A DNA stretch of 64,000 nucleotides from positions 32,001 to 96,000 of IMG/VR virus record IMGVR_UViG_3300045988_107889, one strand, 5' to 3'. A program made the translations under genes and the position numbers. The notes under the pieces are model-generated. The model ran no database searches, was not told the origin of the DNA, and was given only the letters and a program-made list of their open reading frames with translations. Positions within the stretch are counted from its first letter, which is position 1. Each line of letters opens with the position of its first letter. Of the stretch, positions 2,916 through 58,905 are shown piece by piece. Source of the stretch: a virus.

Positions 2916-3136
2916 CCCGTTTCACCATAGGTAGCGACCACACCTTCTGTTCGCAGTCGATTTAGGAATCTCATAACTGTACGACTTTCTTCTAGATAGA
3001 ACTTATGTCGCGTCTTTCTGATGTTTGCGCGCCGTACTTTCTTACGGATTGCTGCAGCTTCTGCTCTTGAAATTTGAATCAATTTCTTTGCTCCTTTTAT
3101 TCTATTTGAGATTAAATAAAGAACCATATTGTTCAT
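2900..3136 (-). CDS. hypothetical small basic protein
   Basis: 78 aa and K/R-rich. It overlaps the downstream gene by 16 nt in the same operon orientation. Confidence 0.45.
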   Translation of the reverse strand: MNNMVLYLISNRIKGAKKLIQISRAEAAAIRKKVRRANIRKTRHKFYLEESRTVMRFLNRLRTEGVVATYGETGCRRQ

Positions 3137-3210
3137 TTAAAATGTTCCATGAACCTGTTCATTATTTTAATCTCATATAATAGTAGAATTTTTTGGAAGA
3201 TAAATTTTTG

Positions 3211-3238
3211 CAAAAAAATAGCGGCCTTCTGGCCGCTA
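3211..3238 (-). terminator. rho-independent terminator after the lipoprotein gene (bidirectional shape)
   Basis: GCGGCC-ttct-GGCCGC hairpin (3221-3236), flanked by an A-run on the + strand (a T-run on the - strand) and by TTTTT on the + strand. Confidence 0.7.
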
Positions 3239-3244
3239 AAATTT

Positions 3245-4003
3245 TTATTCCTGCTTCTCCAATACGGAGCCAGTGTTAAGCGTAATTGTGTTACCATCAA
3301 TTTTCCCGCTCAAGACGTTGCTTTCAGATTGAGAAATAATATTAAAATTGTTATCAGAAACTCCCCACCTTATACTGGTCGGGCCAGTGGAACTACCATT
3401 AACAGTAACATCAATATTGCCAACGCCAAAGCTCTTTACATCTAGCTCAATTTCAATATTACTATTATCTTCGACGCTACGATATTTACCAGTATAATCT
3501 GGTGTTTCCTTGCCACTATAGTTGATCACAAAAGAACTGTAGCCGTGATCGACTACTTTTCCATCACTCAACTCTGGCAAAAATCCAGCACCATTTGCAT
3601 AACACTTCATCACCTGATTCCTATCATCAGGGGTAGCGTTTGGTAGGGCGGCTTCGAGAAAGGAAAAAAGCTCCGAATTGAATGCGTTATCCGTACTTTG
3701 ACCAGTCGTTTTAAAATTGCAAATAAACGCGACTTCTTGTACAGAATCATTTTCGCCAACAGAATCTCTTCCTGTGGAGATTTTAATTTTAGACCCATCA
3801 ATCAGCGAAAATGAACCGCTACTATTAGTCTTGTTTAGACGCGTCATCGACCCATAATCGATAGAGAAAGTCTCGCTCCAGGCTTCGAGACTTTTATTAT
3901 ATGTGTCACAGAACTCTCCAACCGTAAAAGAACCTCCTCCGCCGCAACCAGCCAGCGATACGGCCATGCATATCGCAAGTAAAGCACCTAGTATTTTTCT
4001 CAT
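3245..4003 (-). CDS. secreted lipoprotein
   Basis: 'MRKILGALLAICMAVSLAGCGGGGS' is a signal peptide with the lipobox LAGC. Start taken at the ATG at 4003 (the ORF track starts at 4021). A GGGGGA SD lies upstream. Confidence 0.8.
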   Translation of the reverse strand: MRKILGALLAICMAVSLAGCGGGGSFTVGEFCDTYNKSLEAWSETFSIDYGSMTRLNKTNSSGSFSLIDGSKIKISTGRDSVGENDSVQEVAFICNFKTTGQSTDNAFNSELFSFLEAALPNATPDDRNQVMKCYANGAGFLPELSDGKVVDHGYSSFVINYSGKETPDYTGKYRSVEDNSNIEIELDVKSFGVGNIDVTVNGSSTGPTSIRWGVSDNNFNIISQSESNVLSGKIDGNTITLNTGSVLEKQE

Positions 4004-4358: not shown

Positions 4359-5037
4359 AATTTTCTCCCTCTATATAAAACCGATTTCGCTGTGTCTTTT
4401 CAAATATTTCATTATGTAACTTTTTAAAGTCATTGCGTACAAGCTGAAACTTTCCAGCGTTATAAAGCGGAACCTCTATACGCAATCTAGTCTGAGCATA
4501 TTTACTAGTGGTTGTTTTCTTAGCTCGATGCCACACTGTAGTTGCGCTAGAGTCCAGCTTCGTGATGTACCCAAGCTTAATAAGCTCCGGTAAGTAGCTG
4601 TGGCTAATATGCTGTCTAGTGACACCGCACCACTCAGATAAAGCGGATAGGGAAATGTCAAATTCTCTATTCTTATTTGCGTACACCTTCGCATAGCATA
4701 GCAGAGCTAGAGCAAGTTTGCGTGTATTCTTTCCGTCAAACAAATTGACGATTCTGTTGATGTCTGTTTCGCTTATGTATAAAGTCACATTATCTTTCAA
4801 TCTATCATCACAATTACGCGCCGATTCAATAATGTCATTTACATTGTACTTCAAATAATTATCGGTACGCTTTGCCCACTCAAAAATCCTGTCTCTTGTT
4901 TCTCGGAAGGTACACCCTTCCTGGGTGTACCAACGAGCAATCATATAGGCGGCGCGGTAACGACCGCGTTCTGTTATCTTCTTTCCGTCAAGGTACTCTT
5001 TTACTTCATATACTTCATCTATCAAATGAGGGAACAT
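4351..5037 (-). CDS. hypothetical protein with a C-terminal HTH-like segment
   Basis: 228 aa. 'LSALSEWCGVTRQHISHSYLPELIKLGYI' looks like a winged-helix/HTH. Confidence 0.6.
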   Translation of the reverse strand: MFPHLIDEVYEVKEYLDGKKITERGRYRAAYMIARWYTQEGCTFRETRDRIFEWAKRTDNYLKYNVNDIIESARNCDDRLKDNVTLYISETDINRIVNLFDGKNTRKLALALLCYAKVYANKNREFDISLSALSEWCGVTRQHISHSYLPELIKLGYITKLDSSATTVWHRAKKTTTSKYAQTRLRIEVPLYNAGKFQLVRNDFKKLHNEIFEKTQRNRFYIEGENYG

Positions 5038-5657
5038 CCTCCTTCTTTATCTTAATCATCGTATATCTCTTTCCTAGGTATTCGAGTTCTCCTGTATCAT
5101 CCTGCTTTGGCAGTTTGATGTCTGCCTGCTCGATATTGCTAACAATGCCAGCGCCGCCAACAACCCACTTAAACCGCTGATTCCACGTCCTGTGGTCATG
5201 GCATAACATGACGGCGGCGTTAGCAACCAGCGAGGCGTTGCCGTTACAAATAGAGTAGCAGCGATTCCTATACCGCTCGTACAGTAGGGCGTATGCTTTC
5301 TTGCGTTCCGCTTCCGCGTCCTCTCCATCGAGCTGTTTCAACTTGTGCGACAGCTCTTTTACCTCTGTGCAGAACGAGCGATAGACTTGCTCCATTTCCT
5401 TGTAGAGTTCGTCCGAAACAGGGATTTCATCGTTAATCATGATGTTATAGTCGAACTCTTGGTCAGCTCTTTTGTACCTGACGCCCTTCTTCCAATGCTC
5501 GATCTCCCAACACAGCTTATTCATATTGGACAGTGAACGAGACAGCTTCAGTCTTTCATAATACGGAGAGGCGTACTTCATAAAATAAGGGAGGGGGCGT
5601 CCATATTTTGAAATAGTGCGGGGCATAGGGTACAGGATTCCGGTCTTTGCGTAATCT
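5015..5657 (-). CDS. YonO-like RdRP-fold RNA polymerase, exon 3
   Basis: The frame is open upstream of the annotated Met: '..DYAKTGILYPMPRTISKYGRPLPYFMKY'. This matches the RdRP 'D.pKTG ... P.FM' block. The exon begins just after the intron terminal G at 5658. Confidence 0.7.
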
Positions 5658-6768
5658 CTTTTACACCCTCCGTTTCCGGATATTTGTTAGGGAATAGACT
5701 ATATCATTACCCGTAAGACACGGGCAGTCAGCGCTTCCATTTAAGGGGATCTCACCCACTGAGAGTTTCACTCAGCCGTACTCCTATTGCGGAATCTCAC
5801 CGCCAACGGGATAGTCGTTGCACCTTCCTTATTAAAGGCTTGGCACAGAATTATCATATAGCACATTGTTTTTAACTTATATTATTTGATGTACACCATT
5901 CATCCCATCCGTCAACATGTACGTGCTTCCACGTTCTGTTATTCTTTATACTGAGCACGATGCCGTAACTGATGTTATTCTTTTTTGAAACCGCAGTAAT
6001 ATTTTCTCCATTCATAAGCGATTCCTTTATCCCTTTAGCGACGTCTTCAGATATTTTAGCGGATTTGTTTTTGCTTCCTTGAAGCGCCTTTGAGATCTTT
6101 TCTCTCGTATAATCACTGACGACTCTTCCCGTCATAAGCTCTCGCAATTTATTTTTGTGTTCATCTGAGCACGGTAAATGTTTGCTTGACTCTGACATTT
6201 TTCGCTTCGTCTCTTCAGAAGCTTTTCGCCCAAGCATATGCTCCCGATTTTTCTCTCCGACGATACGCTTTGCGTGGTCGTTCATAGGCACCCCACGTTT
6301 CCCGCCTCCGCCATCCGAAATATTGTAGCAGCTCCCTTTATCTTTTAGTTCTTTTATGTAGTATATTTCAGCGGCATCGACGTCATCACTATCGCTACAA
6401 ATTTGCACAACTGAAAACGTGAAGGAGTCTGATCCGTATTTATTCCAGGCGTTTTGTAAATGCCTGTTATCGTGTGAATGATCATTTAATTTCCAACAAT
6501 GATTCCAAAATCTTCTTTGAAAATTTTGCTTGGTCTGCCCAATATATTGCTTGCCGTTAACTGTATTGGTAATAGAATATATTCCAAAAAGATCTTTATA
6601 TTTTTCTTCTTCTATAAATTTCAATAATACTCCTCTTGGTAACTCATCAGAATTTATTTTATGTGCTACTTAGATTTTCTCTGTTAGCCGGTTCTTGACC
6701 GACACCCTACATGTGTAGGTTCACTGACTTTGCACTACGCTGTTACCAGCGCAGGCCACCGATTGTTG
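5658..6768 (-). mobile_element. group I intron carrying a GIY-YIG homing endonuclease gene
   Basis: Separates in-frame RNAP exons. Core elements on the - strand are GCAACGACTAT (R-like, + coordinates 5811-5821) and GATATAGTC (S-like, 5697-5705). The 5' exon ends in U and the intron ends in G. Boundaries are good to a few nt. Confidence 0.75.
5872..6624 (-). CDS. GIY-YIG homing endonuclease (I-TevI-like, with NUMOD3-type repeats)
   Basis: 'GIYSITNTVNGKQYIGQT...RRFWNH...LQNAWNKYG' plus repeated 'GR..S.ET+.K+S' linkers. TTG start with SD AGAGGAG. Confidence 0.9.
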   Translation of the reverse strand: MKFIEEEKYKDLFGIYSITNTVNGKQYIGQTKQNFQRRFWNHCWKLNDHSHDNRHLQNAWNKYGSDSFTFSVVQICSDSDDVDAAEIYYIKELKDKGSCYNISDGGGGKRGVPMNDHAKRIVGEKNREHMLGRKASEETKRKMSESSKHLPCSDEHKNKLRELMTGRVVSDYTREKISKALQGSKNKSAKISEDVAKGIKESLMNGENITAVSKKNNISYGIVLSIKNNRTWKHVHVDGWDEWCTSNNIS

Positions 6769-7052
6769 ATGGATTTACCTGTTAAGACACTTATAATGTC
6801 AATATACTTCTCATACTTATCTCTTTGTTCTTCTGTTTTACCACATCTGTTTCTGTATGCTGTTGCGTAATTACTGTACTCACCAATCAAATTCTTCATT
6901 GTCCGTAGGATTACTTTCAACCTGTTCTCTGGCGTAAATTCCTCCGGCTCTGTTGTAATCTTATCATCTACGTCTATAACAGGTATGGCGTTTTTTTCTA
7001 CGCCGTTTAGTAACCTGTCATCATCAAATACTAAAACTAAATCTCCGTCAAA
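6769..7052 (-). CDS. YonO-like RdRP-fold RNA polymerase, exon 2
   Basis: Begins 'FDGDLVLVFDDD'. Joined to the exon 1 end '...RLNGAD' it gives ADFDGD, the DxDGD catalytic loop. It extends the ORF-track ORF 6735-6920 upstream with no stop codon. Confidence 0.75.
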
Positions 7053-7332
7053 CTTCTACTCTCGTAGAAAGACTATATCATCTACCGCATAGCGGCAGCG
7101 GTGCGCTTGGAAGCCCGTATCAATAGGACTCCTACTGGGCTACACTCATCACCCATAGTCGTTGCACATTCCTTAAAGGCTTGCACAGGATTACCTTCCC
7201 GGCTTCCCCTGTTAGCTGAACAACTAGCAGTCATTTCCTACTGCTCCTGACGTTTGCTCAACACCCGCTGATAAACGGTTCACACCGAGCTTACACCTAC
7301 GTTACCGCAGGGAAGGACTTTGTTTAGGAGTA
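7053..7332 (-). mobile_element. ORF-less group I intron (about 280 nt)
   Basis: Paralogous to intron 5658-6768, with the same R-like (7155-7165) and S-like (7071-7079) cores. It splits the DxDGD motif. The 5' exon ends in U (7333) and the intron ends in G (7053). Confidence 0.75.
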
Positions 7333-8739
7333 ATCTGCTCCATTCAATCTTTGTGGGATTATTGATTTAGAATTGATGATGCACGTATTAACCAAATGAC
7401 TGAGGTACTTGCTTGTTAATTCATTATTGATAGCGTACAACACGACATTCTCACTATCACAAATGTGAGGGTTACGTGTAATCAACTTGCCGCCGTGCAT
7501 TGGCCCTTCTTTTGTTATACAGTAAAATTCATTGTCGCCGAGACAACCGTTAGGATCTAAACCAGCCGCCGCTTCCATGAATGCAATTAAGTCTGGTATC
7601 AGAAACTTGAAGCAGCTCTTGATCCATATCTTGCCGCAGCACATCTCGTCTATGTATTTAGTCAGCAGACTGATTAAGTAACTCCGCACTTCATATTGTT
7701 TAAGCATAGCGGGATTCTTTATTACGGACTTTGCATAGTCGTTTAAGGGACTGCACTTATCTGCCGTCAGCCCTAAGAAGCACATAGAGTAGAAGGGATC
7801 GCCGTCAATAATCTTTTGTGCCCACTCAATAGAGTCCGTAGCAAGCTCAACAAATTCTTGGTAGGGGAGGTTGAGCGTCTGAAGAACCTGGTAGTTGCAT
7901 CTCGTATAAACTGGCTCGATATCTTTATTGAAGTTCCATTTAGCAACGCCTAAGCAATAACCATACTTTTCGAATTGCTCCCAATAATATTCCCAGTCTG
8001 TTGCATCTTTGTTCGTCTGAAAATATTTGAAGCCCTTATACATACTCTTGCTCAAGATAATCATCGGCTCGGCGTCCGGGGTAACGTCATGCGACACGCC
8101 CCATATATCCTTGATAGATGTTACACCCCGCTCGGCGTAGAAGGTGGGGTAATCAACCTCGCAGGTAAGACCTTTGATATACGGCGCTCGCCAAAGTATC
8201 GTCGTCGGGCTATCAGCAGACGACAGCCGGAACTGAACCTCGTCCGTAATAGCCGGGTGGTGTATGCCACAACCGTCAAATGGAGTTACGTTGATATCTC
8301 TATATCCGTCCGCCACGCTCTTTTGCGTCCAGAGGATCTCTTTGCCATCAGCGTTGGTGAAAGATGTCTTTTCATCGTATATGTATTTGATATGCTGTTG
8401 CGGCAACACGCACTCGTAGTCCGGCACAACAATCACTTTAGGGCGGAAGCCATTCAAGCAATGGCAAGAAGAAAGGCATAGACCCCTATAAGCCATCAGC
8501 TTACTTATGACGGTCGGGCCGGGGCCAGCCCCCATAGTGATTGCCTCGTACACCGGATCTGATATAGCCGCGTCGATAAAGCTCAAGATAGAGTTGCGGG
8601 TCATGCTCGCCGATCGTTCGCACAGTACAAAGTGAGTGCCGTTTAACCAGAACCCATTCATAATTAGCTCCGTCATGACGTCTGTATCAGAGGAGCTACC
8701 CTTACAATCGACAAAACAAATACGCCGCGCACAGGTCAC
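7333..8739 (-). CDS. YonO-like RdRP-fold RNA polymerase, exon 1
   Basis: 'GGKLITRNPHICDSENVVLYA....IIPQRLNGAD' parallels the cellular RdRP block 'V.KNP.LHPGD.RVL.AV.......sGsDLDGD'. The GTG start at 8739 is uncertain, because the frame is open up to 8892. Confidence 0.8.
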
Positions 8740-8922
8740 ATCTTCGCCTGTGATACGCCGTATCTGATAGAATAGTAAATTGTCTGCCTGCTTTATTTCG
8801 TAGGGACGCAGATCTACCCGTAAAGAAAAATTGTTCTCTTTTAATAGCTTGAAAGCTATCTTGTATGTCGTGTATAGCTTAGGTGCGAACAGTTAAAAGC
8901 ACCTCTCTTATCATGAAAGTGA

Positions 8923-14140: not shown

Positions 14141-15031
14141 TCAAATGGCGGCGGGGGTTGAATCAGCAGGTGCTTCGTACAGAGCAGCGAGCTGGTAGTC
14201 GTATCCGTTGCCACCCAGGTTCAGGTTGGTGTAGGCTTCGGTCATCTCTTCCTTGGTGAGGCCGATGTAGCAGAGGGTCTCGTTCATGGAGGAGTGGCCG
14301 AACATCTTCTGGAGGAGTACCAGCTTGCGAGGGTCGTTGCCGGACATCATCATCTGATGATAGCCGAACGTCTTGCGGAGGGAGTGAGAGGAGAACCGGA
14401 AGTCGAAGTTGCAGTGGTCGGCGATATCTTCTAGGATACGATTGACAGATCTTCTGTTGAGAGGACCAGGCTCGTAAGCACCACGGTTGTTGCTCTCAGA
14501 CCGGAACACTAGGTCAGACAGACTGACAGAGTAGGGTGCGTGCTCCAGGTAGAGTTCCACAGCGTCCATGACCGCGTCGTTGATGACAACGTAGCGGTTC
14601 TTTTTTCTTTTACGGGTGGAGGCAGTTTTCTTTTCCAGGATCTCAAAGGATTCTTTAAAGGAGAAGTCCTCGTTTAGGATGTGGGTGAACCGGAGACGCT
14701 GCAGGTCACTAATTCGGAGGCCGAAGTTGATGCCCATGACAAGTAGCATATGATCTCTGTAGCGGTGGTTGTCCAGAAGGTAGGAGCACGCTCTACGGAT
14801 GTCTTCAACACTCTTGATAGGGTCAGCCGCTCGGTCAGGTGCGGTGATGGCCTCTACCGGCTGGTCGCTCTGAGCGGTGATCCGGCTGGCAGCAGATTGC
14901 TTGAGTACCCGTGAACGGCTACTGTCGGCAGTCCGTGAGCGGCGGACAGAGTTGACGTCGATGGACGCGGGGTTGACAGTTTTGCTGGCGGGGTTGACAG
15001 CACTGTTGGGGAAAGAAATTAGGTTGCTCAT
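14141..15031 (-). CDS. tyrosine recombinase / integrase
   Basis: 'GLRISDLQRLRF', 'HSLRKTFGYH' and 'FGHSSMNETLCYIG' give R...HxxR...H..Y. The ATG at 15031 has SD AAGGAGG 8 nt upstream (the ORF-track start is TTG 15037). Confidence 0.9.
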   Translation of the reverse strand: MSNLISFPNSAVNPASKTVNPASIDVNSVRRSRTADSSRSRVLKQSAASRITAQSDQPVEAITAPDRAADPIKSVEDIRRACSYLLDNHRYRDHMLLVMGINFGLRISDLQRLRFTHILNEDFSFKESFEILEKKTASTRKRKKNRYVVINDAVMDAVELYLEHAPYSVSLSDLVFRSESNNRGAYEPGPLNRRSVNRILEDIADHCNFDFRFSSHSLRKTFGYHQMMMSGNDPRKLVLLQKMFGHSSMNETLCYIGLTKEEMTEAYTNLNLGGNGYDYQLAALYEAPADSTPAAI

Positions 15032-15081
15032 TGGCAAAACCTCCTTTTAAATTTGAAATGTTTTCTATTGATTATGTTACT

Positions 15082-16660: not shown

Positions 16661-17449
16661 ATGAATAACAATGAATTGTTGAAAAAGTACGAATCCACTA
16701 CCACCACCGACCTGAACAATCAGGTGAAGTCCGCTGTCGAGAAGGCAAACGCCTATGCTAAACAGCCCGAACTGAACCAGGTCGAGCTGTTGAAGCTCCG
16801 TGCCGATGCCGTTGCTCTGGCAGATGACTATAACCGTCTGGTAAAGCTCCGCCGTCTGGGCGAGCTGGCCGCCATGTCCTACGGGGACGCCATCAACGCC
16901 ATGACGGTAGAGGGCGGGGAAACTTGCCCCAAGATGGAAGTGATTCTCGATGGGGAGATCATGAACATCACCACGTCCAACGCCACCCGTATCCGCTGGA
17001 ACGAGTTGTTGAAGGCTGGCCAGTGTCCCGACGGTTACGAAAACCTGGAATCCCTGGTAAAGGTTTTCACCCACAACTGCCTCACCAACAAATTTGAAAA
17101 GGGTCAGTTGGTCGAGCTGCCCCCGCTGGACCCCGCTATCAAAGCGGTCGCTAATGGTCGTGACAACTGGGACTCTGGCTCTATGAATAAGTTGCAGTGC
17201 CAGATCCGGGATCTCATCGGCTGGATGTTCCCGGTGGACGAAGTAGGGGAATACTCTGCTCCTAGAAAGTCTGATGTACGGTGGTTTTCTGACATCGTTT
17301 GCCCTGCGAGTGACCGCGCTGGTGAACCTGCCCACTATGTCCAGCGCAAGGTATCTACTTTGTTGGACTCCCTGTTCAGAGTGTTCTATACCCTGAAAGA
17401 GGAGAAGGAAGTGGTCGTACGGCCTGCAAAAGCTAGCAAGAACCAGTAA
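16661..17449 (+). CDS. hypothetical protein
   Basis: 262 aa. SD AAAGGAG lies 8 nt upstream. First gene of the rightward arm. The overlapping - strand ORF looks like an antisense artefact. Confidence 0.75.
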   Translation: MNNNELLKKYESTTTTDLNNQVKSAVEKANAYAKQPELNQVELLKLRADAVALADDYNRLVKLRRLGELAAMSYGDAINAMTVEGGETCPKMEVILDGEIMNITTSNATRIRWNELLKAGQCPDGYENLESLVKVFTHNCLTNKFEKGQLVELPPLDPAIKAVANGRDNWDSGSMNKLQCQIRDLIGWMFPVDEVGEYSAPRKSDVRWFSDIVCPASDRAGEPAHYVQRKVSTLLDSLFRVFYTLKEEKEVVVRPAKASKNQ

Positions 17450-17559
17450 GTCGTTCCGGCGACTATAAACAGGCGTTAGGCCGGGAGCGTTCGCAGGTTA
17501 GGGCAAGCCCAACCTGCGAGGTCGCAGGAATAACATAGGTGGATTCTGTCTATGCCTGC

Positions 17560-23571: not shown

Positions 23572-23648
23572 ACCAGCATAGTTTTAAATGGGAAAACAAC
23601 GGTCTCCAAAACCGTAGTTCTAGGTTCGAGTCTTAGTGCTGGTGCCAC
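23572..23648 (+). tRNA. tRNA-Trp(CCA)
   Basis: Acceptor ACCAGCA/TGCTGGT. Anticodon arm ACGGT-CTCCAAA-ACCGT. T arm CTAGG-TTCGAGT-CTTAG. Ends GCCA. Confidence 0.8.
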
Positions 23649-24053
23649 GTGCAAGTTTAATTGCACGGTGTGTAGTGTGAAAAAAGTCATATATTGCTCT
23701 ATGTATATAACCTCACGGCGTAAAAGAGGTTGACTGTCTGACCGCAGTTATTCCAGTGCAATTCTGGTTGCCGTACACGCTGCTCAAAGCGGGTGAAGAG
23801 GTGTGGCACACTCCTTCCGTGCCTCACTTATGACTTCAAGGCGGTGCAATTCCGCCTAGCAGCTCTCAATCGCTCTAGTTAACTGGTTCTGGGGCGAGGG
23901 TCAAAACCAGCAACCTAAACATTGATTGCAGACACCTGGTTAAGTACAGGCTAGGCAAGAAAGCTCTCAGGCACGGTTGGGCAACACAATCCAGCCCTAT
24001 CCTTTGGTTAGGCCGACTGATTGATAGGGCGGTTGTGGTTGCTGAACAAATAT

Positions 24054-24144
24054 CTCCCTGTAGCTAAATTGGTTATAGCTTCCAACTTATAATTGGAAGG
24101 CCCTCATAAGGTATATGGTGATTCGAATTCACCCAGGGAGACCA
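24054..24144 (+). tRNA. tRNA with anticodon UAU (nominally Ile) and a class II-like long variable arm
   Basis: Acceptor CTCCCTG/CAGGGAG. D arm GCTA-AATTGGTTA-TAGC. Anticodon arm TCCAA-CTTATAA-TTGGA. 19-nt variable region AGGCCCTCATAAGGTATAT. T arm GGTGA-TTCGAAT-TCACC. Ends ACCA. Confidence 0.65.
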
Positions 24145-24195
24145 CGATACCACGATAAAAATCTAATTCCATAAATAAGAAAGTGAGGAACTAAT

Positions 24196-24849
24196 ATGAA
24201 CAAAGAAACTATGACCGTCCATAAAGCTCTTGCGGAGCTGAAAATTTTGGACGCTAGAATTTTCAACGCCACTTCTGGCAAAACATTTGTCGCCGCGAAG
24301 AAGGTGAGCGACAAAAAGATCGGCGGTGTGTTGGTCGAAACCCTCAAGAAGGATATGAAGTCTGATTATCAGTCTGTTACGGACTTGATTGCTCGTCGGA
24401 CTGCCATTAAGAGAGCAGTTGTGCTCTCTAATGCCAAAGCTAAGGTAGTAATTGGTGGTGAGACCTATACTGTGGCAGAAGCTATTGAAATGAAGAACCA
24501 TGGCCTCATGGCAAAGAGAGACTTGCTGGATGTAATGGTTCGGCAGTATGAAAAGGCTCGTGCCGAGGTCGCCAAACACGAAGGCGAGTGGATTGAAGCG
24601 AAAGCCGAGCAATACATTATGAATTTCCTTCAGTCGCAGCCCAAAGAGGCCAAGACAACCAAGGATTCTGAGGTCGTTAAGCGGTTGAGAGAAGAGTATA
24701 TTGCCAACAATACGTATGAACTCATTGATCCGCTTGACATTGGTAATGAAATCAAGGTTTTGAGCGATTGGATTGACGCGTTTACTGCGGATGTAGATTC
24801 TCAGCTGTCTGTGTCCAATGCGACCACTACAATCACCGTAGAATACTAA
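24196..24849 (+). CDS. hypothetical coiled-coil protein embedded in the tRNA cluster
   Basis: 217 aa. SD GTGAGGA. No motif recognised with confidence. Confidence 0.7.
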   Translation: MNKETMTVHKALAELKILDARIFNATSGKTFVAAKKVSDKKIGGVLVETLKKDMKSDYQSVTDLIARRTAIKRAVVLSNAKAKVVIGGETYTVAEAIEMKNHGLMAKRDLLDVMVRQYEKARAEVAKHEGEWIEAKAEQYIMNFLQSQPKEAKTTKDSEVVKRLREEYIANNTYELIDPLDIGNEIKVLSDWIDAFTADVDSQLSVSNATTTITVEY

Positions 24850-25028
24850 AATAATCAACTTGCTGCAACCCGAAAACCTAAAACGGTAACCCATCGTGCT
24901 GACGGCACTTGGTTCGATGTAAAAATGAACAAATATGTGCCAACTACAAGGCAAACTTGAAATTTTGTGCTTGTAAAAAGATTGGGCGGTTAATCCAAAT
25001 CTCTTATAAAAAGAAGATATTTGCTGTA

Positions 25029-25190
25029 AAGCTCAAATTTCAAAGCTCGAATTTCAAAATTCAAGGCTCAAAGATCTTCAGAAGATTAAAGTTCAAGGGT
25101 CAACGTTCAATGGTTAAAGTTTTACAAAATCCTGGGTTAATGGTTTGGGTCAGTTATCAACGCCCACGGGTCAACCACCAGGCTGGGTTG
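25029..25190. repeat. degenerate short-period repeats
   Basis: GCTCAAATTTCAAA / GCTCGAATTTCAAA / ATTCAAGGCTCAAAG / GTTCAAGGGTCAACGTTCAA, followed by GGGTTAA..GGGTCA..GGGTCA..GGGTTG. Confidence 0.6.
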
Positions 25191-25205
25191 TAGCAAGTTC
25201 AATAT

Positions 25206-25290
25206 GCGGGATTGGCGGAATTGGTAGACGCATCGTGTTTAAGTCTCGATGTCGAAAGACGTAGGAGTTCGAGTCTCCTATCCCGTACCA
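25206..25290 (+). tRNA. tRNA-Leu(UAA)
   Basis: Acceptor GCGGGAT/ATCCCGT. Anticodon loop TTTAAGT. Variable arm TGTCGAAAGACGT. T arm AGGAG-TTCGAGT-CTCCT. Ends ACCA. Confidence 0.85.
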
Positions 25291-25439
25291 AAGAAAAGCC
25301 CATAGTTTGCGGACTATGACACCTGAAAAGTGGCGGTTTGCTTCTGGTAGACCGTAGTAGTGTGTTGACATCCTGGAAGAGACAGGAGTTCCCCTTTTTG
25401 ATCCCCCTTACATAGCTACCCCGCTTTGCGGGGTAGCGT

Positions 25440-25515
25440 GGCCGATTAGTTTAAATGGTAAAACGGCGGATTTGTACCCCGCAGATGTCGAGTTCGAGCC
25501 TCGCATTGGCCTCCA
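25440..25515 (+). tRNA. tRNA-Thr(UGU)
   Basis: Acceptor GGCCGAT/ATTGGCC. Anticodon loop TTTGTAC. T loop TTCGAGC. Ends TCCA. Confidence 0.8.
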
Positions 25516-25516
25516 T

Positions 25517-25590
25517 GCTACTATAGTTTAATGGTTGAACGGTTGTTTCGTAAGCAACAGGTTCCAGTTCGATTCTGGGTAGTAGCTCCA
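25517..25590 (+). tRNA. tRNA-Thr(CGU)
   Basis: Acceptor GCTACTA/TAGTAGC. Anticodon arm GTTGT-TTCGTAA-GCAAC. T arm TCCAG-TTCGATT-CTGGG. Ends TCCA. Confidence 0.85.
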
Positions 25591-25593
25591 TAT

Positions 25594-25668
25594 CTGGGTG
25601 TAGCGCAATGGAAGCGCTCCTGATTTGGGATCAGGAGGTTGTCAGTTCGAGCCTGACCACTCAGACCA
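25594..25668 (+). tRNA. tRNA-Pro(UGG)
   Basis: Acceptor CTGGGTG/CACTCAG. Anticodon arm CCTGA-TTTGGGA-TCAGG. T arm GTCAG-TTCGAGC-CTGAC. Ends ACCA. Confidence 0.85.
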
Positions 25669-25670
25669 AT

Positions 25671-25745
25671 GCAGGCGTAGTTCAACGGCTAGAACACCGG
25701 TCTTCCAAACCGGAAACGCGAGATCGGCACTCGTCGCCTGCTCCA
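25671..25745 (+). tRNA. tRNA-Gly(UCC)
   Basis: Acceptor GCAGGCG/CGCCTGC. Anticodon arm CCGGT-CTTCCAA-ACCGG. T arm GCGAG-ATCGGCA-CTCGT. Ends TCCA. Confidence 0.8.
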
Positions 25746-25851
25746 TATCAAGCAACAGAAAACGATTCTCCTACCTGTTATTGTTGATAAATCACCTCCT
25801 TTCTTTACATAGCCTGGAATGGCGTTAAACTCTGCTCTGCTTGATTTATAT

Positions 25852-25925
25852 AGCGCCGTAGCATAACGGTAATGCAACGGACTTTGACTCCGTAAACGGT
25901 AGTTCGACACTATCCGGCGCTGCCA
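25852..25925 (+). tRNA. tRNA-Gln(UUG)
   Basis: Acceptor AGCGCCG/CGGCGCT. Anticodon arm ACGGA-CTTTGAC-TCCGT. T arm GGTAG-TTCGACA-CTATC. Ends GCCA. Confidence 0.85.
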
Positions 25926-25983
25926 CGTTCGTTTTATACGGACACTTGCTTTCATTAACCGGCGGTACCACCGCCGGTAACAT

Positions 25984-26068
25984 GTGGGCGTGATGTAATT
26001 GGCAAACATGCGAGATTTAGGTTCTCGTGTCGAAAGATGTGCGGGTTCGAACCCCGTCGCCCACTCCA
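25984..26068 (+). tRNA. tRNA-Leu(UAG)
   Basis: Acceptor GTGGGCG/CGCCCAC. Anticodon arm CGAGA-TTTAGGT-TCTCG. Variable arm TGTCGAAAGATGT. T arm GCGGG-TTCGAAC-CCCGT. Ends TCCA. Confidence 0.85.
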
Positions 26069-31847: not shown

Positions 31848-32189
31848 ATGAAATTTGAAGATATGTATGTTGGGCAAAAGATTAGGGTACGGACTTTAGA
31901 CGACATGGTATCTGACCCTGATTTAACGTATAGACTTGATAAGTCTTTTAAAGTAGCGACGATCAGGTCTAAGGATAATACAACTCATTTGAGCTTAATT
32001 CGTAAGACAATGCGTTATTGTGGTACAGCTGTGACGGTGTTCTCATTAACAGAAAATCTTGCACCAACAGAGTGGAGGCATGTTTATATAGAAGAAGATA
32101 ATCAATATTACCCATGGGAGTCTTGGATGTTTGAACCGATTGAAAGTAAGGTTGATAGTGATGTATTCTTGAGTTGTTTAATGTTATGA
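31848..32189 (+). CDS. CLLL-tail family protein 5
   Basis: '..VGQKIRVRTLDDM...WMFEPIESKVDSDVFLSCLML'. Paralogue of protein 4. Confidence 0.75.
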   Translation: MKFEDMYVGQKIRVRTLDDMVSDPDLTYRLDKSFKVATIRSKDNTTHLSLIRKTMRYCGTAVTVFSLTENLAPTEWRHVYIEEDNQYYPWESWMFEPIESKVDSDVFLSCLML

Positions 32190-32871: not shown

Positions 32872-32879
32872 ATATTAGT

Positions 32880-33320
32880 TGTTTGAGGTGGAAATTTCGT
32901 GTCGCCACGCGCCTTAATGGCTAAAGAGATGCAGGGGAATGGCACGCCTGCTAACAACCAATTCAATCTAAATATCTGAAAGCACTTTCTATTTAAAAAA
33001 AATAGAAACTCTTACCGGAACGGAAGAGTGGCACATCGTCCGAAAGAGGAACCCCGCTGCGTGCGATAGCAAACCAATACTTGGTGCCCTCCAAGAAGGC
33101 TTAACACCCCGGTGGCATCTTCTCTGATGAGAAGCATCGCCCGAACAACAGGAAAAACCAGAAGGATATTCGTTCGACAGGTTCAACATCCGCCACCAGC
33201 AGGGGTATCCGGCAAACAATAAACGCCAAGTCAGGGATTTCACCGTCTCAGACGACGACAAGCTCCGCGATGAGCATCTCGTACTGACATCCAAATCCAT
33301 ATATAGTTTCAGATAAAAGC
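32880..33320 (+). ncRNA. ORF-free, T-poor A/C-rich segment B directly upstream of the RT (candidate RT-associated ncRNA)
   Basis: It contains an A-loop hairpin TTTCTATT-..A8..-AATAGAAA (32986-33008), CCGGAACGG (33015-23) and the box CATCCGCCACCAGC (33187-33200). It is on the same strand as the RT and ends at the RT's SD. The only ORF here is an SD-less antisense one. Confidence 0.45.
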
Positions 33321-33332
33321 AAGGAGAATAAT

Positions 33333-34499
33333 ATGATTTATGTAACAGCAAGAATTACAGAGCCGTATAAGCAGATTTCTTTAGAGGATATTATGTCTGC
33401 GCTGCTTCAAGATAAACATGTGAGGGAATCGAGATCTCTATATACTAGAACAGTTACATATGAGAGACTGCCCGAGAGAATCCTGGCAGGGTTTGACACG
33501 GGGAAAAAGATTGAGCTGCTGAGAGCATTTAACAAAAAGCATCAGGAACTGCTTGAAAGCGATCTTCATACGCATTACCACAAGTTTTTTATCCCGAAAA
33601 AGAGCGGCGGCATGAGAGAGATTAACGCGCCGGACGACGAGCTGATGAATTGTCTGCGAGAGCTAAAACTGCTGTTAGAATCTGAGTTTTATGCGAGCAG
33701 CCACGCCGCTGCGTACGCTTATGTCAAAAACAGAAGCAGTGTAGATGCAGCAAAAGTCCATCAGTGGAACAAGAGTAAGTGGTATTTAAAGACTGACATC
33801 AGCGGTTTCTTTCCCAACACTACTCCAAAGTTTGTATGGAACGCGCTGTCTACAATTTATCCGTTCTGTCTCATTATGGAGCACAAGAACGGGAGAGAGG
33901 AGCTTAAAAAAGCTCTGTCGCTCTGTTTCTTAGACGGCGGCCTGCCTATGGGGACACCGATCAGCCCGATGCTGACCAACCTGATTATGATTCCATTTGA
34001 TTTTGAGTTCAGTAAGTTTCTGCGCAGCCTACAGGACCCAGCGAACAGCCCTGATAGAAAGGGTAGAAGGTTCGCGTATACCAGATATGCTGACGACATG
34101 AATATTAGCTGTGGTATTGAATTTGATAAGGGGTTTATTATTAGAAAGATTGAAGAGCTATTTAGGCTGTTTGGAGCTAGTTATATCATTAAAGACGAGA
34201 AGACTCATTACGGCCCGTCGTATCATAAGAATTGGGTACTCGGTGTGATGATCAACAAGGACAACCAGATCACGATTGGGTATAAGAAGAAGCGCAACTT
34301 CGAGGCGATGCTTTTCAATTACGCGAAGGACAGAAAGAGCGGAACTTATTGGCCTCTTGAGCAACTGCAATATGTGCTCGGTCTTATGAGCTACTATCGA
34401 ATGGTTAACAGAGGAAGTATTGATGGAGTTATCACTCGCTATAGTCAGAAGTTTGGCTTTGATATTGAAGCCACGATGAAGAAGGATCTCAAAAACTAA
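33333..34499 (+). CDS. retron-type (or Abi/DRT-like) reverse transcriptase
   Basis: 'FFIPKKSGGMREINAPDDEL', 'KTDISGFFPNT', 'GLPMGTPISPMLTNL', 'YTRYADDMNIS' and 'NWVLGVMINKDNQITIG' correspond to RT motifs 1-7, including YADD and a VTG-like box. SD AAGGAGAA. Confidence 0.85.
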   Translation: MIYVTARITEPYKQISLEDIMSALLQDKHVRESRSLYTRTVTYERLPERILAGFDTGKKIELLRAFNKKHQELLESDLHTHYHKFFIPKKSGGMREINAPDDELMNCLRELKLLLESEFYASSHAAAYAYVKNRSSVDAAKVHQWNKSKWYLKTDISGFFPNTTPKFVWNALSTIYPFCLIMEHKNGREELKKALSLCFLDGGLPMGTPISPMLTNLIMIPFDFEFSKFLRSLQDPANSPDRKGRRFAYTRYADDMNISCGIEFDKGFIIRKIEELFRLFGASYIIKDEKTHYGPSYHKNWVLGVMINKDNQITIGYKKKRNFEAMLFNYAKDRKSGTYWPLEQLQYVLGLMSYYRMVNRGSIDGVITRYSQKFGFDIEATMKKDLKN

Positions 34500-43042: not shown

Positions 43043-43187
43043 TAGGTGTTTTATGTACAATTTTTATGATGATTATAAAAACCCTATTTCGGAGATTGAA
43101 CAGGAACAAATACATACCCAAGCACAGAGTTTGAGCTGGTAATGCGTAGAAAGACTAGTGAAGATAGGTAAAGACGAGGTGAATATT

Positions 43188-44057
43188 ATGTCGGTAAAAG
43201 ATGCGCTCGGCGACAGAATGAAAGCGTACTACGAAAGCATTCCGAAGACAAAGCTAATGCGAAGAACGCCGGTTGCGATCAGACTGGATGGTAAAGCGTT
43301 TCACACTTTCACAAAAGGTTTTCAAAAGCCTTTTGATGATGTGCTGATCAAATCAATGCAAGATACAATGAAGTACCTCTGTGAGAACATCCAGGGTGTG
43401 GTGTTTGGCTACACTCAATCCGATGAAATCACGTTAATTCTTGTAGACTATAAGAATCTTAATTCTGCTGCTTGGTTTGATTATGAGGTGCAGAAAATGT
43501 GCAGCGTGGCAGCGAGCATGGCTACCCTTGCGTTTAACAAAGCGTTTGCAAAGCGGTACGACGAGTGGGGTAGAGAACAGTTCCCGTGCTGGGATGAAGG
43601 TGGCACAAATGATCCTATTGATAAAGATCTGCTGAAGCTGAGTTGGACTTATGGTTATGCCGAAGGTAGAGGGGCTATGTTCGATGCAAGAGTGTTCAAC
43701 GTCCCAAAAGAAGAAGTGGCGAACCTCATCTATTGGAGGCAGCTGGATGCTATCAGAAATAGCATTCAAATGGTTGGTAGAGCAAACTTTAGCCATCGAG
43801 AACTAGATCGTAAGTCTTGCAGCGATATCCAGGATATGCTGATGACAGAGAAGGAAATTAACTGGAATGACTTTCCTGCGTGTCAAAAGAGAGGTAGTTG
43901 CTGCGTTAAAATGTATCAAGTTGGTGAACAGGAATGGAAGAGTCACGCCGAAGATGAGTTGATGCCTAGTGGAAGAACTAAGTGGGAAGTGATTGATGAG
44001 GTTCCTATCTTCAAAGGGAGCGAAAGATGTTACATAGAGAAATTGATTTACTTGTAA
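43188..44057 (+). CDS. Thg1-like 3'-5' nucleotidyltransferase (tRNA-His guanylyltransferase family)
   Basis: 'LGDRMKAYYE....RTPVAIRLDGKAFHTFTKGF.KPFD...' and 'FGYTQSDEITLIL' match the Thg1/TLP N-terminal signature. The ATG lies 6 nt after GAGGTG. Confidence 0.8.
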   Translation: MSVKDALGDRMKAYYESIPKTKLMRRTPVAIRLDGKAFHTFTKGFQKPFDDVLIKSMQDTMKYLCENIQGVVFGYTQSDEITLILVDYKNLNSAAWFDYEVQKMCSVAASMATLAFNKAFAKRYDEWGREQFPCWDEGGTNDPIDKDLLKLSWTYGYAEGRGAMFDARVFNVPKEEVANLIYWRQLDAIRNSIQMVGRANFSHRELDRKSCSDIQDMLMTEKEINWNDFPACQKRGSCCVKMYQVGEQEWKSHAEDELMPSGRTKWEVIDEVPIFKGSERCYIEKLIYL

Positions 44058-55973: not shown

Positions 55974-57920
55974 TTGGATAATTATGTTGCATATCATGTT
56001 CACAGCGACTATTCGCTGCTGGACTCGACGACAGATTTTAACCTTTACATAGAGAAGGCAAAGCAGCTTGGGCAGAAGGCTATTTGCTTCACCGAGCATG
56101 GCAACATCCGTGGATGGGTTGCCAAGAAGATGGCTTGTGATGCAGCAGGTATCAAGTATCTGCATGGCGTGGAGATTTATTTAACGGAGTCTCTGCAGGA
56201 GAAAGTGAGAGACAACTACCACACAATTCTGATAGCGAAGAACCGGCAAGGTTTTTTGGAACTCAATAAGTTGCTCAGTATGTCAACAGATGAGGACCAT
56301 AAATACTATGTTGGACGGCTTTCATTTGATGAGTTTTTGAATATCTCTCCGAATATTATCAAGACGTCCGCTTGTTTGGCTTCACCGCTGAACAAGCTGG
56401 ACGTAAGTCACCCGTACTACGAGAAGCTCGTAAAGAAGTATGACTACCTTGAGATCCAACCGTACGATTGTGAAGATCAGATTGTCTATAACAGACACTT
56501 AGCAGCGCTGTCTCAAAGGTATAACATCCCTTTGATTGCGGCAACAGACACGCACAGTATCGACCAATACTACGCTGAGTGCCGGTCATTACTTGCTTAT
56601 GCAAAGAGTAGGCATTATGACACGGAAGATGATTTTGATCTAACGTATAAGTCGCGCGAGGAATTGGAAGAAGCATTTAGAAAGCAGGACGCTATCCCAG
56701 AAGAAGCATGGCAGGCCGCGATAGACAATACAGTCTTGATGGCAAATCAGGTTGAGGAGTTTGAATTAGATACTTCTTTGAAATACCCAATCCTTTATGG
56801 GTCTGCAGAAGAAGATAGAGAAAAATTTATCCAGAATATTAACGAAAAGCTAGAAGCAAAGTTAGAGGCCGGAATCATCCCAAGAGAGCAAGAGCAAGCG
56901 TTCCGAGACGCAATTAAAGAAGAGCTTAGAGTATTCACAAAACTTGGGATGTGCGGGTTCATGCAATCTATGAGCGAGATCCTTACATGGTGTCATGAGA
57001 ATGGAATTGTAACAGGTCCTGGGCGTGGCAGTGTAGCTGGGTCAAGAGTTGCTTATGTGACAGATATTACAGATGTTAACCCGGAAACATGGCATACGGT
57101 ATTTAGCCGCTTTTGCAATGAGGACCGAATTGAAGCAGGCGATATCGACACAGACGTTATTGAAGATGACCGCCCTAAGATCTTTAATTACATTATTGAA
57201 CGATTCGGGCAACAGAAGACTGCGTTCGTTCCATCATGCGGCACATTAAAAGGCTTGGCGACTATCGAAGAGATTGTGCGTGGGTTCAGACATAAATGGG
57301 CAGAGCAACATCCGGAAGCGGACAAAAACGAAAATCCATATCCAGTAAGTCTAGCGGCAAAGATTAAAGCAGATTACGGAAAGGACGCAGAAACGTGCAG
57401 AGAGAGATACAAAGAAACGTTCTATTATTTTGATGGGTTCCTGAATACAAGAGTATCACAATCTGTACATCCGGCTGGCATTGTGATCAGCCCTGTTACA
57501 TTAGATGATAACTATGGCGTTTTTCACCACAAGGATAGCGGTATCGTACTTCAGATTGACATGGAAGAAATCCATGAGGTGTCTCTCGTTAAGTACGACA
57601 TGCTTGTTCTAAGTACGTTACAAATTATTCGTGACGCTTGCAAACTAGCAAACATCCCATACCCGAAGTCACATGAAATAGATTGGGGTGACCAAAAGGT
57701 TTGGGAAGACATGATGGTTTCCAATATCGGCATCTTTCAGATGGAATCTCCCTTTGCAGGAAAGATGCTAAAGGACTTCAACACGAAGTCAATCTTTGAT
57801 ATGTCGTTGGTGACTGCGTGTATTCGCCCGTCTGGCGCGTCGTATAGAAATGATTTGATAAGTAGAGTTCCACATCATAACCCGTCGCCAATGATTGACG
57901 AGTTGCTTTCGGACAACAAT
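55974..57920 (+). CDS. dnaE: DNA polymerase III alpha (DnaE-type), exon 1
   Basis: PHP 'YHVHSDYSLLDS....FTEHGN'. Catalytic 'GPGRGSVAGSRVAYVTDITDVNP...FSRFCNEDRIEAGDIDTD'. 'HPAGIVIS'. TTG start 8 nt after GGAGGAGG. The exon end is good to a few nt. Confidence 0.85.
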
Positions 57921-58905
57921 GGATTAGAGATAGTCCCGGTGCATAGTAATATGCGCTTGCAAACCCATTGAATTGCTGGAAACCCCTTAGAGCTATATTC
58001 GCCACAACGTAATTTTGAAACAAAGATAAGCGTGATGGTTTGAAAAGAATGTAGATTGGGCAATCAGCAGCCAAGTCTCGAACAGAGAAAGGTTCAACGA
58101 CTATTGCGTATGCAAGTAGGACCGCAAGCGATCGGCGGTTCGAAGCGGTGGGCATCCGGATAAAAACGGATGAAGATATAGTCTACGCTCTATCGAAATG
58201 GTAGAGAATAGTTTAGCGAACTAAGTGCTATGTAAATAAATTATGAAGGAGGTGAATGTATGTATCAATTAAAAGGGAAACAGTTTGGAAGACTGTTGGT
58301 AGTCGATAGAGCTGGTAGCGATAAGGCAAAAAACGCAACGTGGCGTTGCCGATGCGACTGTGGCAAAGAAAAAGTAGTGTCAAGCCGTAACCTAATTGCC
58401 GGAGACACTCGTTCATGCGGGTGTCTTCAAAGAGAGCTAGTTAAAGAAAGAATGACGACACATAAAGCGTCGAAAACAAGACTGTATCGTGTGTGGGCTG
58501 GTATTAAAAACCGTTGTTACAATAAGAATTCTGAAAACTATAAGTATTATGGCGGGAAAGGCATTGCGGTATGCGAAGAATGGCGAAATGATTTTACGGC
58601 GTTTTCAGAGTGGGCAATCGAGAATGGATATAACGAGTACGCGGCCACACAAGAATGTACAATTAACAGGATAGATAACTCAAAAGATTACTGCCCGTCG
58701 AATTGTAGGTGGTCTAACCATACATCACAATGCAATAACCAATCAAGCAATAAACTGTTTACTTACAATGGCGAAACATTAACCATGGCAGAATGGGACA
58801 GAAGAACGGGAATAAAATACACGACGTTAAGAGCTAGAATCCGTCGAGGCGTCCCGTTCGAAGAGGCGATTAAGATGAAAGAGATACATAGCACATAATA
58901 AAACG
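57921..58905 (+). mobile_element. group I intron carrying an HNH endonuclease gene
   Basis: The Pol III frame is broken after '..SDNN(G)' and resumes at '(D)LIYQEDTIKF..'. R-like GTTCAACGACTAT (58093-58104) and S-like GAAGATATAGTC (58172-58183) cores are present. The 5' exon ends in U and the intron ends in G. Confidence 0.8.
58260..58898 (+). CDS. HNH-type homing endonuclease
   Basis: 'W.C.CDCG....CGC', 'YRVWAGIKNRCYN....Y..YGGKGI.VCEEW' and 'INRIDNSKDYCPSNCRW...Q.NN' match a common phage HNH/AP2-like homing-endonuclease pattern. SD GAAGGAGG. Confidence 0.85.
   Translation: MYQLKGKQFGRLLVVDRAGSDKAKNATWRCRCDCGKEKVVSSRNLIAGDTRSCGCLQRELVKERMTTHKASKTRLYRVWAGIKNRCYNKNSENYKYYGGKGIAVCEEWRNDFTAFSEWAIENGYNEYAATQECTINRIDNSKDYCPSNCRWSNHTSQCNNQSSNKLFTYNGETLTMAEWDRRTGIKYTTLRARIRRGVPFEEAIKMKEIHST

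Follow-up and report, generated by a model that had tools for sequence, protein, structure and literature searches.

How a phage could obtain a working RNA polymerase from a gene that is broken inside its active-site motifs is the question raised by a locus on the minus strand of a 64,000-nucleotide stretch of viral DNA (IMG/VR record IMGVR_UViG_3300045988_107889, positions 32,001 to 96,000; hereafter the window, meaning this whole stretch), which derives from a ~107-kb gut phage known from metagenomes only. The gene encodes a relative of YonO, the RNA polymerase of phage SPbeta, and lies in three exons separated by two inserts (Table 1). We consider it very probable that the locus specifies one single-chain polymerase of 828 residues, and that two mobile group I introns, both from a single IA-like subfamily, have inserted themselves into its gene. 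An original prediction, made from the sequence of the window, had proposed a YonO-like gene split by two related group I introns at its catalytic motifs; this outline withstands the comparisons given below, while its protein length and its means of confirming the introns do not.

The intron boundaries are best seen by comparison with uninterrupted alleles. L083 (L-numbers denote phage loci from relatives), which is 95% identical to the window and intron-less, matches the joined window exons exactly at both sites. The junction at site 1 as read in L003, an allele without an intron at that site, is GCAGAT^TTTGAC (the caret marks the intron position), and the junction at site 2 in L083 is AAATCCAT^AGATTAC, each being the sequence of the joined window exons. 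At site 2 a single cut position reproduces the L083 sequence, and at site 1 a run of T allows one alternative cut, which is excluded by the terminal-G rule for introns. Precise excision at these positions restores the host frame relative to L083 and L003. The boundary rule of the original prediction also holds, with T as the last base of both 5' exons (7333 and 6769) and G as the last base of both introns (7053 and 5658). The same is true of its reading of the frames: the open reading frame (ORF) 7324-8739 ends in ...RLNGADYS and a stop, FDGDLVLVFDD continues at 7052 so that ADFDGD is restored, and the frame that reaches ...LTGKSI at 6769 picks up at 5657 with DYAKTGILYP...PLPYFMKY. In-frame stops are met 2 and 10 intron-encoded codons past the two 5' splice sites. 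The spliced product had been put at 777 aa, which is too short: counted from CTG 8892 the three exons total 2487 nt, or 828 codons and the stop, for an expected full-length protein of ~96 kDa. More than 300 homologues without any interruption (800-880 aa, up to 71% identical) were obtained in a protein search, and all read NGADFDGDLV and GKSIDYAKTG.

Table 1. Coordinates in the window of the split polymerase gene, its introns and their elements (a caret marks an intron position).
Feature	Position	Strand	Description
Shine-Dalgarno sequence AAGAGAGGTG	8900-8909	-	its GAGG ends 9 nt upstream of the CTG; unchanged in all close relatives
Exon 1	7333-8892	-	520 codons; start CTG 8892-8890; ends ...NGAD, T at 7333
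Intron 1	7053-7332	-	280-nt group I intron (IA-like) without ORF; splits D520^F521 of ADFDGD
Intron 1 internal guide CAAAGUCCUUC	7312-7322	-	all its pairs kept in 8/8 sequences
Intron 1 P3 5' strand CGGUGUG	7281-7287	-	pairs with CGCACCG 7099-7105
Intron 1 extra hairpins P3.1 and P3.2	7217-7278	-	P3.1 7265-7278, P3.2 7217-7260; between P3 5' strand and J3/4
Intron 1 P7 5' strand GACUAU	7155-7160	-	pairs with AUAGUC 7071-7076; guanosine-binding helix
Exon 2	6769-7052	-	284 nt; FDGDLVLV...LTGKS and first two bases of the Ile615 codon
Intron 2	5658-6768	-	1111-nt group I intron (IA-like) of intron 1's subfamily; inside the Ile615 codon (AT^A), directly before D616
Homing endonuclease ORF	5872-6624	-	250 aa; TTG start after AAGAGGAG; wholly in the P5a terminal loop, stems 6663-6669 and 5858-5864
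Exon 3	5015-5657	-	643 nt, stop included; last base of the Ile615 codon, then DYAKTGILYP... to the C-terminus

All four combinations of intron presence and absence are found among contigs 95-98% identical to the window. L083 has no introns; L003 and L084 (97% identical) have intron 2 only, with its endonuclease; L085 (97.5% identical) is interrupted at site 1 only, by an 832-nt intron 1 (3061-3892) with an HNH-type ORF in its P6a loop, and its site 2 is empty; L001, L004, L005, L030 and L087 have both introns with no ORF in either, intron 2 being 309-316 nt long; and L086 resembles the window in having both introns and an endonuclease in intron 2. When the spliced window gene is compared with intron-less L083, the ratio of nonsynonymous to synonymous differences per site (pN/pS) comes to 0.057 for the whole gene (0.056 in exon 1, 0.037 in exon 2 and 0.067 in exon 3) at a pS of ~0.41, and no frameshift or stop occurs in any of the three exons. 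Because the two kinds of allele have long coexisted under purifying selection, the interrupted allele must presumably still give a functional protein, and for this the inserts would have to leave at the RNA level.

That this protein is a YonO-like RNA polymerase, as had been proposed, is a point on which family, sequence and fold comparisons all agree. The match to the RNA-dependent RNA polymerase (RdRP) family PF05183 of Pfam scores 58 bits against a cut-off of 23.8 bits, phrog_8308 matches with an E of 1.3e-79, and BLASTP aligns the protein to SPbeta YonO with 24% identity over 659 residues (E 1e-28), with ADFDGD placed against DNDGD and KSIDYAKTG against FTIDFAKTL. None of the DxDGD triad residues (D520, D522, G523, D524) varies among 59 sequences. 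An AlphaFold model computed with a 59-sequence input has a pLDDT of 91.6 and a pTM of 0.88, and the best PDB folds found for it with Foldseek are plant RDR2 and fungal QDE-1 (E ~1e-21, TM ~0.55), then the two-barrel RNA polymerases of Thermus phages and then beta' subunits; the fold of two double-psi beta-barrels is recognized here as a whole-fold match, not residue by residue. Sequence searches of the PDB with the protein alone or with a 16-sequence profile gave nothing useful, and a 59-sequence profile gave a weak match to QDE-1 only (E 2.4), which we use as a motif alignment and not as proof. YonO itself is a proven DNA-dependent RNA polymerase that transcribes the late operon of SPbeta, and its Asp triad is essential (PMC5467207). 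The comparisons support the window protein as an orthologue-level relative of SPbeta YonO, that is, a single-chain two-barrel RNA polymerase of 828 residues, and by analogy it may carry out DNA-dependent transcription of late phage genes.

The identification of the inserts as two related group I introns is borne out by their exact excision, a complete group I fold, covariation and an independent profile. The shared core elements that had been noticed, GCAACGACTAT ... GATATAGTC, are present in both inserts, and a regular-expression search of both strands of the window finds the pair three times only, in the two inserts and in a third intron at 58.1 kb. Introns 1 and 2 have the same architecture, with ~184 identical positions in a global alignment (280 vs 319 nt), and both fold, from the 5' end, into P1 with a U.G at the splice site, P10 on the same guide, P2 with a GNRA loop, P3, P3.1, P3.2, J3/4, P4, P5, P6, P7, P7.1, AGUA, P7.2, the 3' strand of P3, P8, the 3' strand of P7, P9 and the terminal G. 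Each thus possesses the group I core of P3/P7 pseudoknot, P4-P5-P6, P8, J8/7 and J6/7, as well as the mark of subgroup IA, namely P7.1 and P7.2 between P7 and the P3 3' strand with a conserved AGUA between them and compensatory changes. The P7.1/P7.2 layout is found likewise in 118 phage introns retrieved by the core pattern.

Pairing of the guides to the exons is well preserved. In intron 1, CAAA of the guide pairs with UUUG of the 3' exon (P10), GUC with exon GAU, including a G.U at the splice site (P1), and CUUC with exon GGAG; in intron 2 the corresponding pairings are CCAU/GUGG (P1) and AAUC/GAUU (P10). The P1 pairs are kept in every sequence of both introns, and the P10 pairs in 8/8 sequences of intron 1; in intron 2 a single cell departs from the P10 pairing (96.4% kept). 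Over the whole structure, 98.5% of cells are standard-paired in the alignment of intron 1 (8 sequences), with 19 pairs changed on both sides compared to 4.4 in shuffles, and 98.8% in that of intron 2 (7 sequences), with 20 such pairs compared to 6.1; none of 500 shuffles reaches 19 in the first case or 20 in the second. Compensatory changes fall in P3, P4, P6a and P8, and also in P7, where they are seen family-wide as an exchange of GACUAU/AUAGUC for GACCAU/AUGGUC. The P3 of intron 1 has two compensatory pairs (CGACGUG/CGCGUCG in L001 and L002), and across the family P3 and P4 each occur in four distinct complementary versions, with P3.1 and P8 covarying as well. An nhmmer profile that was built from five Bacillus-type phage introns and contained no relative of the window was searched in the whole window and matches intron 1 with an E of 1.6e-12, the 3' and 5' parts of intron 2 (split by the ORF) with 1.2e-25 and 7.7e-6, and the third intron with 5e-10. 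The P3 given here for intron 1 replaces a first candidate, GCGGGUG/CACCGC, that clashed with P8; the helix adopted, CGGUGUG/CGCACCG, covaries and fits intron 2.

The two hairpins for which the names P3.1 and P3.2 are coined in this analysis appear to set the subfamily apart. In intron 1 they show one and five compensatory pairs, respectively, P3.2 has a conserved loop (AGGAAAUG), and both elements recur in intron 2 and in Bacillus phage introns. A literature search on hairpins between P3 and P4 of group I introns found nothing, and this P3.1/P3.2 subfamily, which is invisible to Rfam, could represent a structural subclass that is widespread among Bacillota phages and has yet to be described. 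One further pairing involves the 5' splice site of intron 1: exon GGAG can alternatively pair with intron bases 3-6, CUCC (7324-7341, minus strand), giving a small hairpin whose loop holds the splice site, and in L002 (5461-5490) the two strands of this hairpin have changed in concert (GGGG/CCCC). Such a hairpin may compete with P1 as an alternative fold.

The start of translation had been left between two codons. The frame of exon 1 is indeed open from 8892 with no ATG, GTG or TTG before 8739, behind a Shine-Dalgarno sequence, GAGAGG, 9 nt upstream of the CTG, and of the two starts offered, CTG 8892 stands and GTG 8739 falls. The window reads CTG-TTC-GCA-CCT-AAG where its homologues start with MFAPKLYT, and the more than 300 intron-less homologues start at this point and cover residues 1-51; a start at GTG 8739 is ruled out, as it would drop these 51 conserved residues, which are present in all homologues. 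The CTG is found at the start in 13/13 close relatives, with an in-frame stop (TAA, TGA or TAG) directly upstream, and since the same CTG, upstream stop and Shine-Dalgarno sequence recur in all 13, CTG 8892 is by this comparison a conserved weak start and not a sequencing error. Remoter relatives start the polymerase with TTG or ATG. A +1 frameshift from an overlapping mini-ORF was also considered and set aside, the CTG start being simpler and in keeping with the N-termini of the homologues. This mini-ORF has 11 codons from an ATG (MIREVLLTVRT and a stop, 8879-8914, minus strand), contains the Shine-Dalgarno sequence of the polymerase, overlaps the CTG in another frame and ends 13 nt past it; it is kept in those close relatives for which the upstream sequence was inspected, and could matter for start-site control. 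Among loci L001-L092, the codon before FAPK/FSPP, taken by regular expression, is ATG in 19 cases, CTG in 14 (the window being counted twice), TTG in 7 and ATT in 7. Weak starts would recur in this polymerase family if the ATT cases, counted by regular expression only, are real.

Some of the results weigh against a single polymerase restored by self-splicing. CTG is a very weak initiator. The P1 of intron 1 is short, consisting of 3 bp, a 2-nt bulge and 4 bp. When the pairing partners are slid as a control, ~40% of cells remain paired in intron 1 and 35-48% in intron 2, a control that is inflated by the derivation of the structure from the same sequences that were used for the pair counts, with the compensatory counts unaffected. 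Finally, a scan with the Rfam model RF00028, which had been suggested as a means of confirming the introns, did not serve that end: neither intron is matched at the gathering threshold in the region, and the sub-threshold matches are of 24.3 bits (E 0.0016) for intron 2 and 22.4 bits (E 0.006) for intron 1 in a 2.1-kb search, relative to a gathering score of 50. RF00028 also misses the homologous introns of Bacillus phage Goe11, L085, L002, L064 and L078.

Under the standard group I mechanism, the pre-mRNA would fold such that the internal guide of each intron pairs with the last bases of the upstream exon, with the U.G at the cleavage site. Free guanosine would then bind at P7, and two transesterifications would remove the intron, ending at its terminal G and rejoining AD^FDGD and SI^DYAKTG. 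Both this catalytic self-splicing and the activity of the endonuclease are predicted from sequence and structure. Translation would begin at the weak CTG behind its good Shine-Dalgarno sequence, giving a product with the junction peptides ...LNGADFDGDLVLVFDDDR and SIDYAK and the N-terminus Met-FAPKLYTTYK. As both junctions fall within nucleotide- or metal-binding motifs, active enzyme would come from doubly spliced mRNA only. We count in support of this scheme that phi3T, a viable laboratory phage, carries a homologous intron in yonO.

The placement of both introns at catalytic motifs, also part of the original prediction, is supported by the alignments. Site 1 is inside the Asp triad, where intron 1 parts the first Asp from the other two, and segments of 10-16 residues centred on it rank 4th-5th of ~815 in conservation. 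Site 2 adjoins the IDxxK motif with its invariant D616, K619 and G621, at the end of a predicted 27-residue helix, and its segments rank 41st-59th, within the top 5-7%. In the profile search GKSIDYAKTG aligns, weakly (E 2.4), with GKLVDQSKQG of QDE-1, in which V1115, D1116 and K1119 belong to a trigger-loop-like subdomain and contact the base, 3'-OH and gamma-phosphate of the incoming NTP (PMC9508822). By homology, the site 2 motif would correspond to this NTP-contacting motif of QDE-1; the study of YonO saw no homology between that enzyme and the multisubunit RNA polymerase trigger loop (PMC5467207). The intron sites mark two YonO-type motifs that are conserved from Bacillus phages to phages of gut Clostridia.

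Given such positions, the introns and the weak CTG might together gate the output of the late RNA polymerase, with the efficiency of splicing (through GTP level, folding or a protein cofactor) determining when late transcription begins, or whether it does. Either interruption leaves the unspliced product catalytically dead, with the early in-frame stops behind each 5' splice site, and the CTG is both kept in 13 relatives and overlapped by the 11-codon mini-ORF, all of which would suit a gate. However, the introns are dispensable, given that closely related phages do without either or both (L083, L003, L085), and selfish homing is classically recognized by just such presence/absence polymorphism accompanied by endonuclease genes. 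We therefore regard a regulatory role as improbable, and see an equally small chance in the more far-reaching proposals that double active-site interruption, CTG and mini-ORF form a layered throttle timing the late switch in ~107-kb gut phages, or that the intron subfamily is an undescribed subclass. It is far less probable still that the inserts no longer splice, leaving either a decaying pseudogene or separate polypeptides that form a split polymerase. Split RNA polymerase subunits do occur in jumbo phages (PMC2919709), and the Bacillus phage equivalents are annotated in GenBank as two ORFs, yonO_1 and yonO_2, but here all three exons are under strong purifying selection with no frameshift or stop, exon 2 lacks both a start codon and a ribosome-binding site at its 5' end, the intron helices stay paired by compensatory changes, and the catalytic DxDGD would have to be shared between two chains. 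That the inserts are some other type of intervening element (intein, group II intron or insertion sequence, for example), for which nothing speaks except the interruption of the gene itself, can practically be dismissed, since the stop codons after the exon ends exclude in-frame inteins, the inserts contain no reverse transcriptase or group II domains and have RF00028 as their sole intron-family match, and the group I core is present with its P3/P7 pseudoknot, terminal G and U.G pair.

The preferred reading, two mobile group I introns in one polymerase gene, also accounts for a means of spread. The GIY-YIG gene reported in the second insert matches Pfam GIY-YIG (E 1.6e-13), NUMOD3 (E 8e-9) and a PHROG homing endonuclease (E 4.6e-42), and its product is 45% identical (E 5e-71) to that of an ORF inside the yonO intron of Goe11. 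During co-infection this enzyme would cut intron-less alleles near the conserved target, with intron 2 copied in as a result. The endonuclease of intron 1 would have been lost in the window and retained by a relative as the HNH gene in P6a, and since it is L085 whose intron 1 carries this ORF, the two introns apparently use different endonuclease families (HNH vs GIY-YIG). Transfer of introns between distant YonO genes is indicated because the endonucleases are 45% identical and the host polymerases only 24%, so that related introns, aiming at a shared motif, appear to travel between polymerase genes that have diverged very far. Remoter relatives with 50-75% protein identity have other and dissimilar inserts at site 2 or close by, namely L064 (2186-3412, at the identical AT^A GAT position), L078 (~5911-6857) and L002 (6045-6306), and on this basis the site 2 motif has probably been invaded repeatedly and independently.

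Among known systems, the Bacillus phages phi3T, vB_BsuS-Goe11 and Goe14 (Spbetavirus) and SPbeta-like prophages share the host gene family and the motif (TID^FAKT vs SI^DYAKT). In GenBank phages searched by tblastn, the yonO of Goe11 appears as yonO_1, a 300-aa hypothetical ORF and yonO_2, that of Goe14 likewise as numbered yonO ORFs, and that of phi3T as two yonO-like ORFs, phi3T_60/59. The intron of these phages belongs to the subfamily of the window, with P3.1/P3.2, the same conserved P3.2 loop, matching P9 elements and a homologous GIY-YIG endonuclease. It differs in an insertion point 4 nt downstream of window site 2, in a P7 of GACCAU/AUGGUC, in being the single intron, site 1 being empty, in host proteins 24% identical to that of the window, and in its annotation as ORFs, not as an intron. 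A literature search for introns in yonO found no paper linking the two. SPbeta yonO is uninterrupted, unlike the window gene, and its product shares with QDE-1, RDR2 and the window protein the two double-psi beta-barrels, the DxDGD triad and an (I/V)DxxK trigger-loop-like motif. The subfamily of the window introns occurs also in tape-measure-like, terminase-like and DnaE-like genes of other phages.

The T4 introns in td (with I-TevI), nrdB and nrdD are phage group IA2 introns with homing endonucleases. Such introns share with those of the window an IA-type core with P7.1/P7.2, an endonuclease ORF in a peripheral loop, a position where an essential gene is most conserved and a patchy distribution among close relatives; the window introns differ by their YonO-type host gene, two extra hairpins between P3 and J3/4 and RF00028 scores far below threshold. 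To this group belong also the introns of the SPO1 DNA polymerase gene, of SPbeta bnrdE/bnrdF and of Bacillus cereus-group prophages (PMC2504315, PMC11878797). Mobile introns also interrupt multisubunit two-barrel RNA polymerase genes of jumbo phages, for example gp273/274 of 201phi2-1 (PMC2919709); the products of those genes are beta/beta'-like subunits, whereas the polymerase of the window is single-chain and YonO/RdRP-like, with two introns, one per active-site motif. The mechanism is an ordinary one, in which mobile group I introns home to the sites of strongest conservation in an essential phage gene; the host gene is apparently undescribed in this role. Less ordinary are two related introns at two nucleotide-binding motifs, a subfamily missed by Rfam, the apparent transfer between distant YonO genes, and the conserved CTG.

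These features have consequences for annotation. Gene callers break the polymerase up into two or three ORFs and overlook where it really starts, and such splitting is the source of truncated database entries of 483-632 aa (P0004, P0005, P0007, P0031 and others) and of the Bacillus entries yonO_1/yonO_2 and phi3T_60/59. Since the subfamily scores well below the curated Rfam threshold, surveys based on RF00028 will under-count it among phage group I introns.

As for the genome as a whole, no near-identical DNA was found among GenBank phages, and a scan of a genome collection for a host found no relative. The window contains a replication module of primase-helicase, DnaE-like polymerase, NAD-dependent ligase and NrdD. 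Two tyrosine integrase genes (656-1681 and 14141-15037, both on the minus strand) flank the polymerase region, which suggests a temperate lifestyle or a mobile sub-module. On the plus strand lie an array of nine tRNA genes (23572-26065) and an ORF (43158-44057) that matches tRNA-His guanylyltransferase (phrog_4717, E 2e-88).

Other structured RNAs are present on the plus strand. A pistol ribozyme at 17449-17526 scores 66.9 bits (gathering score 34.5), and a skipping-rope RNA at 32878-32958 (50.3 bits) is located just upstream of a reverse-transcriptase-like ORF (33333-34499; phrog_2825, E 9e-38, and phrog_1423), within 6 kb of which no template/variable repeat of a diversity-generating retroelement was found. 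A sub-threshold skipping-rope match of 31.3 bits is also seen in Goe11 (L092, 6973-7082) right after yonN, downstream of yonO; an unannotated non-coding RNA near the YonO promoter in that region is mentioned in PMC5467207. The third group I intron (57895-58206; RF00028, 82.9 bits) lies in the finger domain of the DnaE-like DNA polymerase III alpha gene (55974-60090) and is followed by an HNH endonuclease ORF (58260-58898; phrog_374, E 3e-70), with the polymerase resuming at ~58957. The DnaE gene of a relative, L159, is interrupted at a similar place by an intron belonging to the P3.1/P3.2 subfamily.

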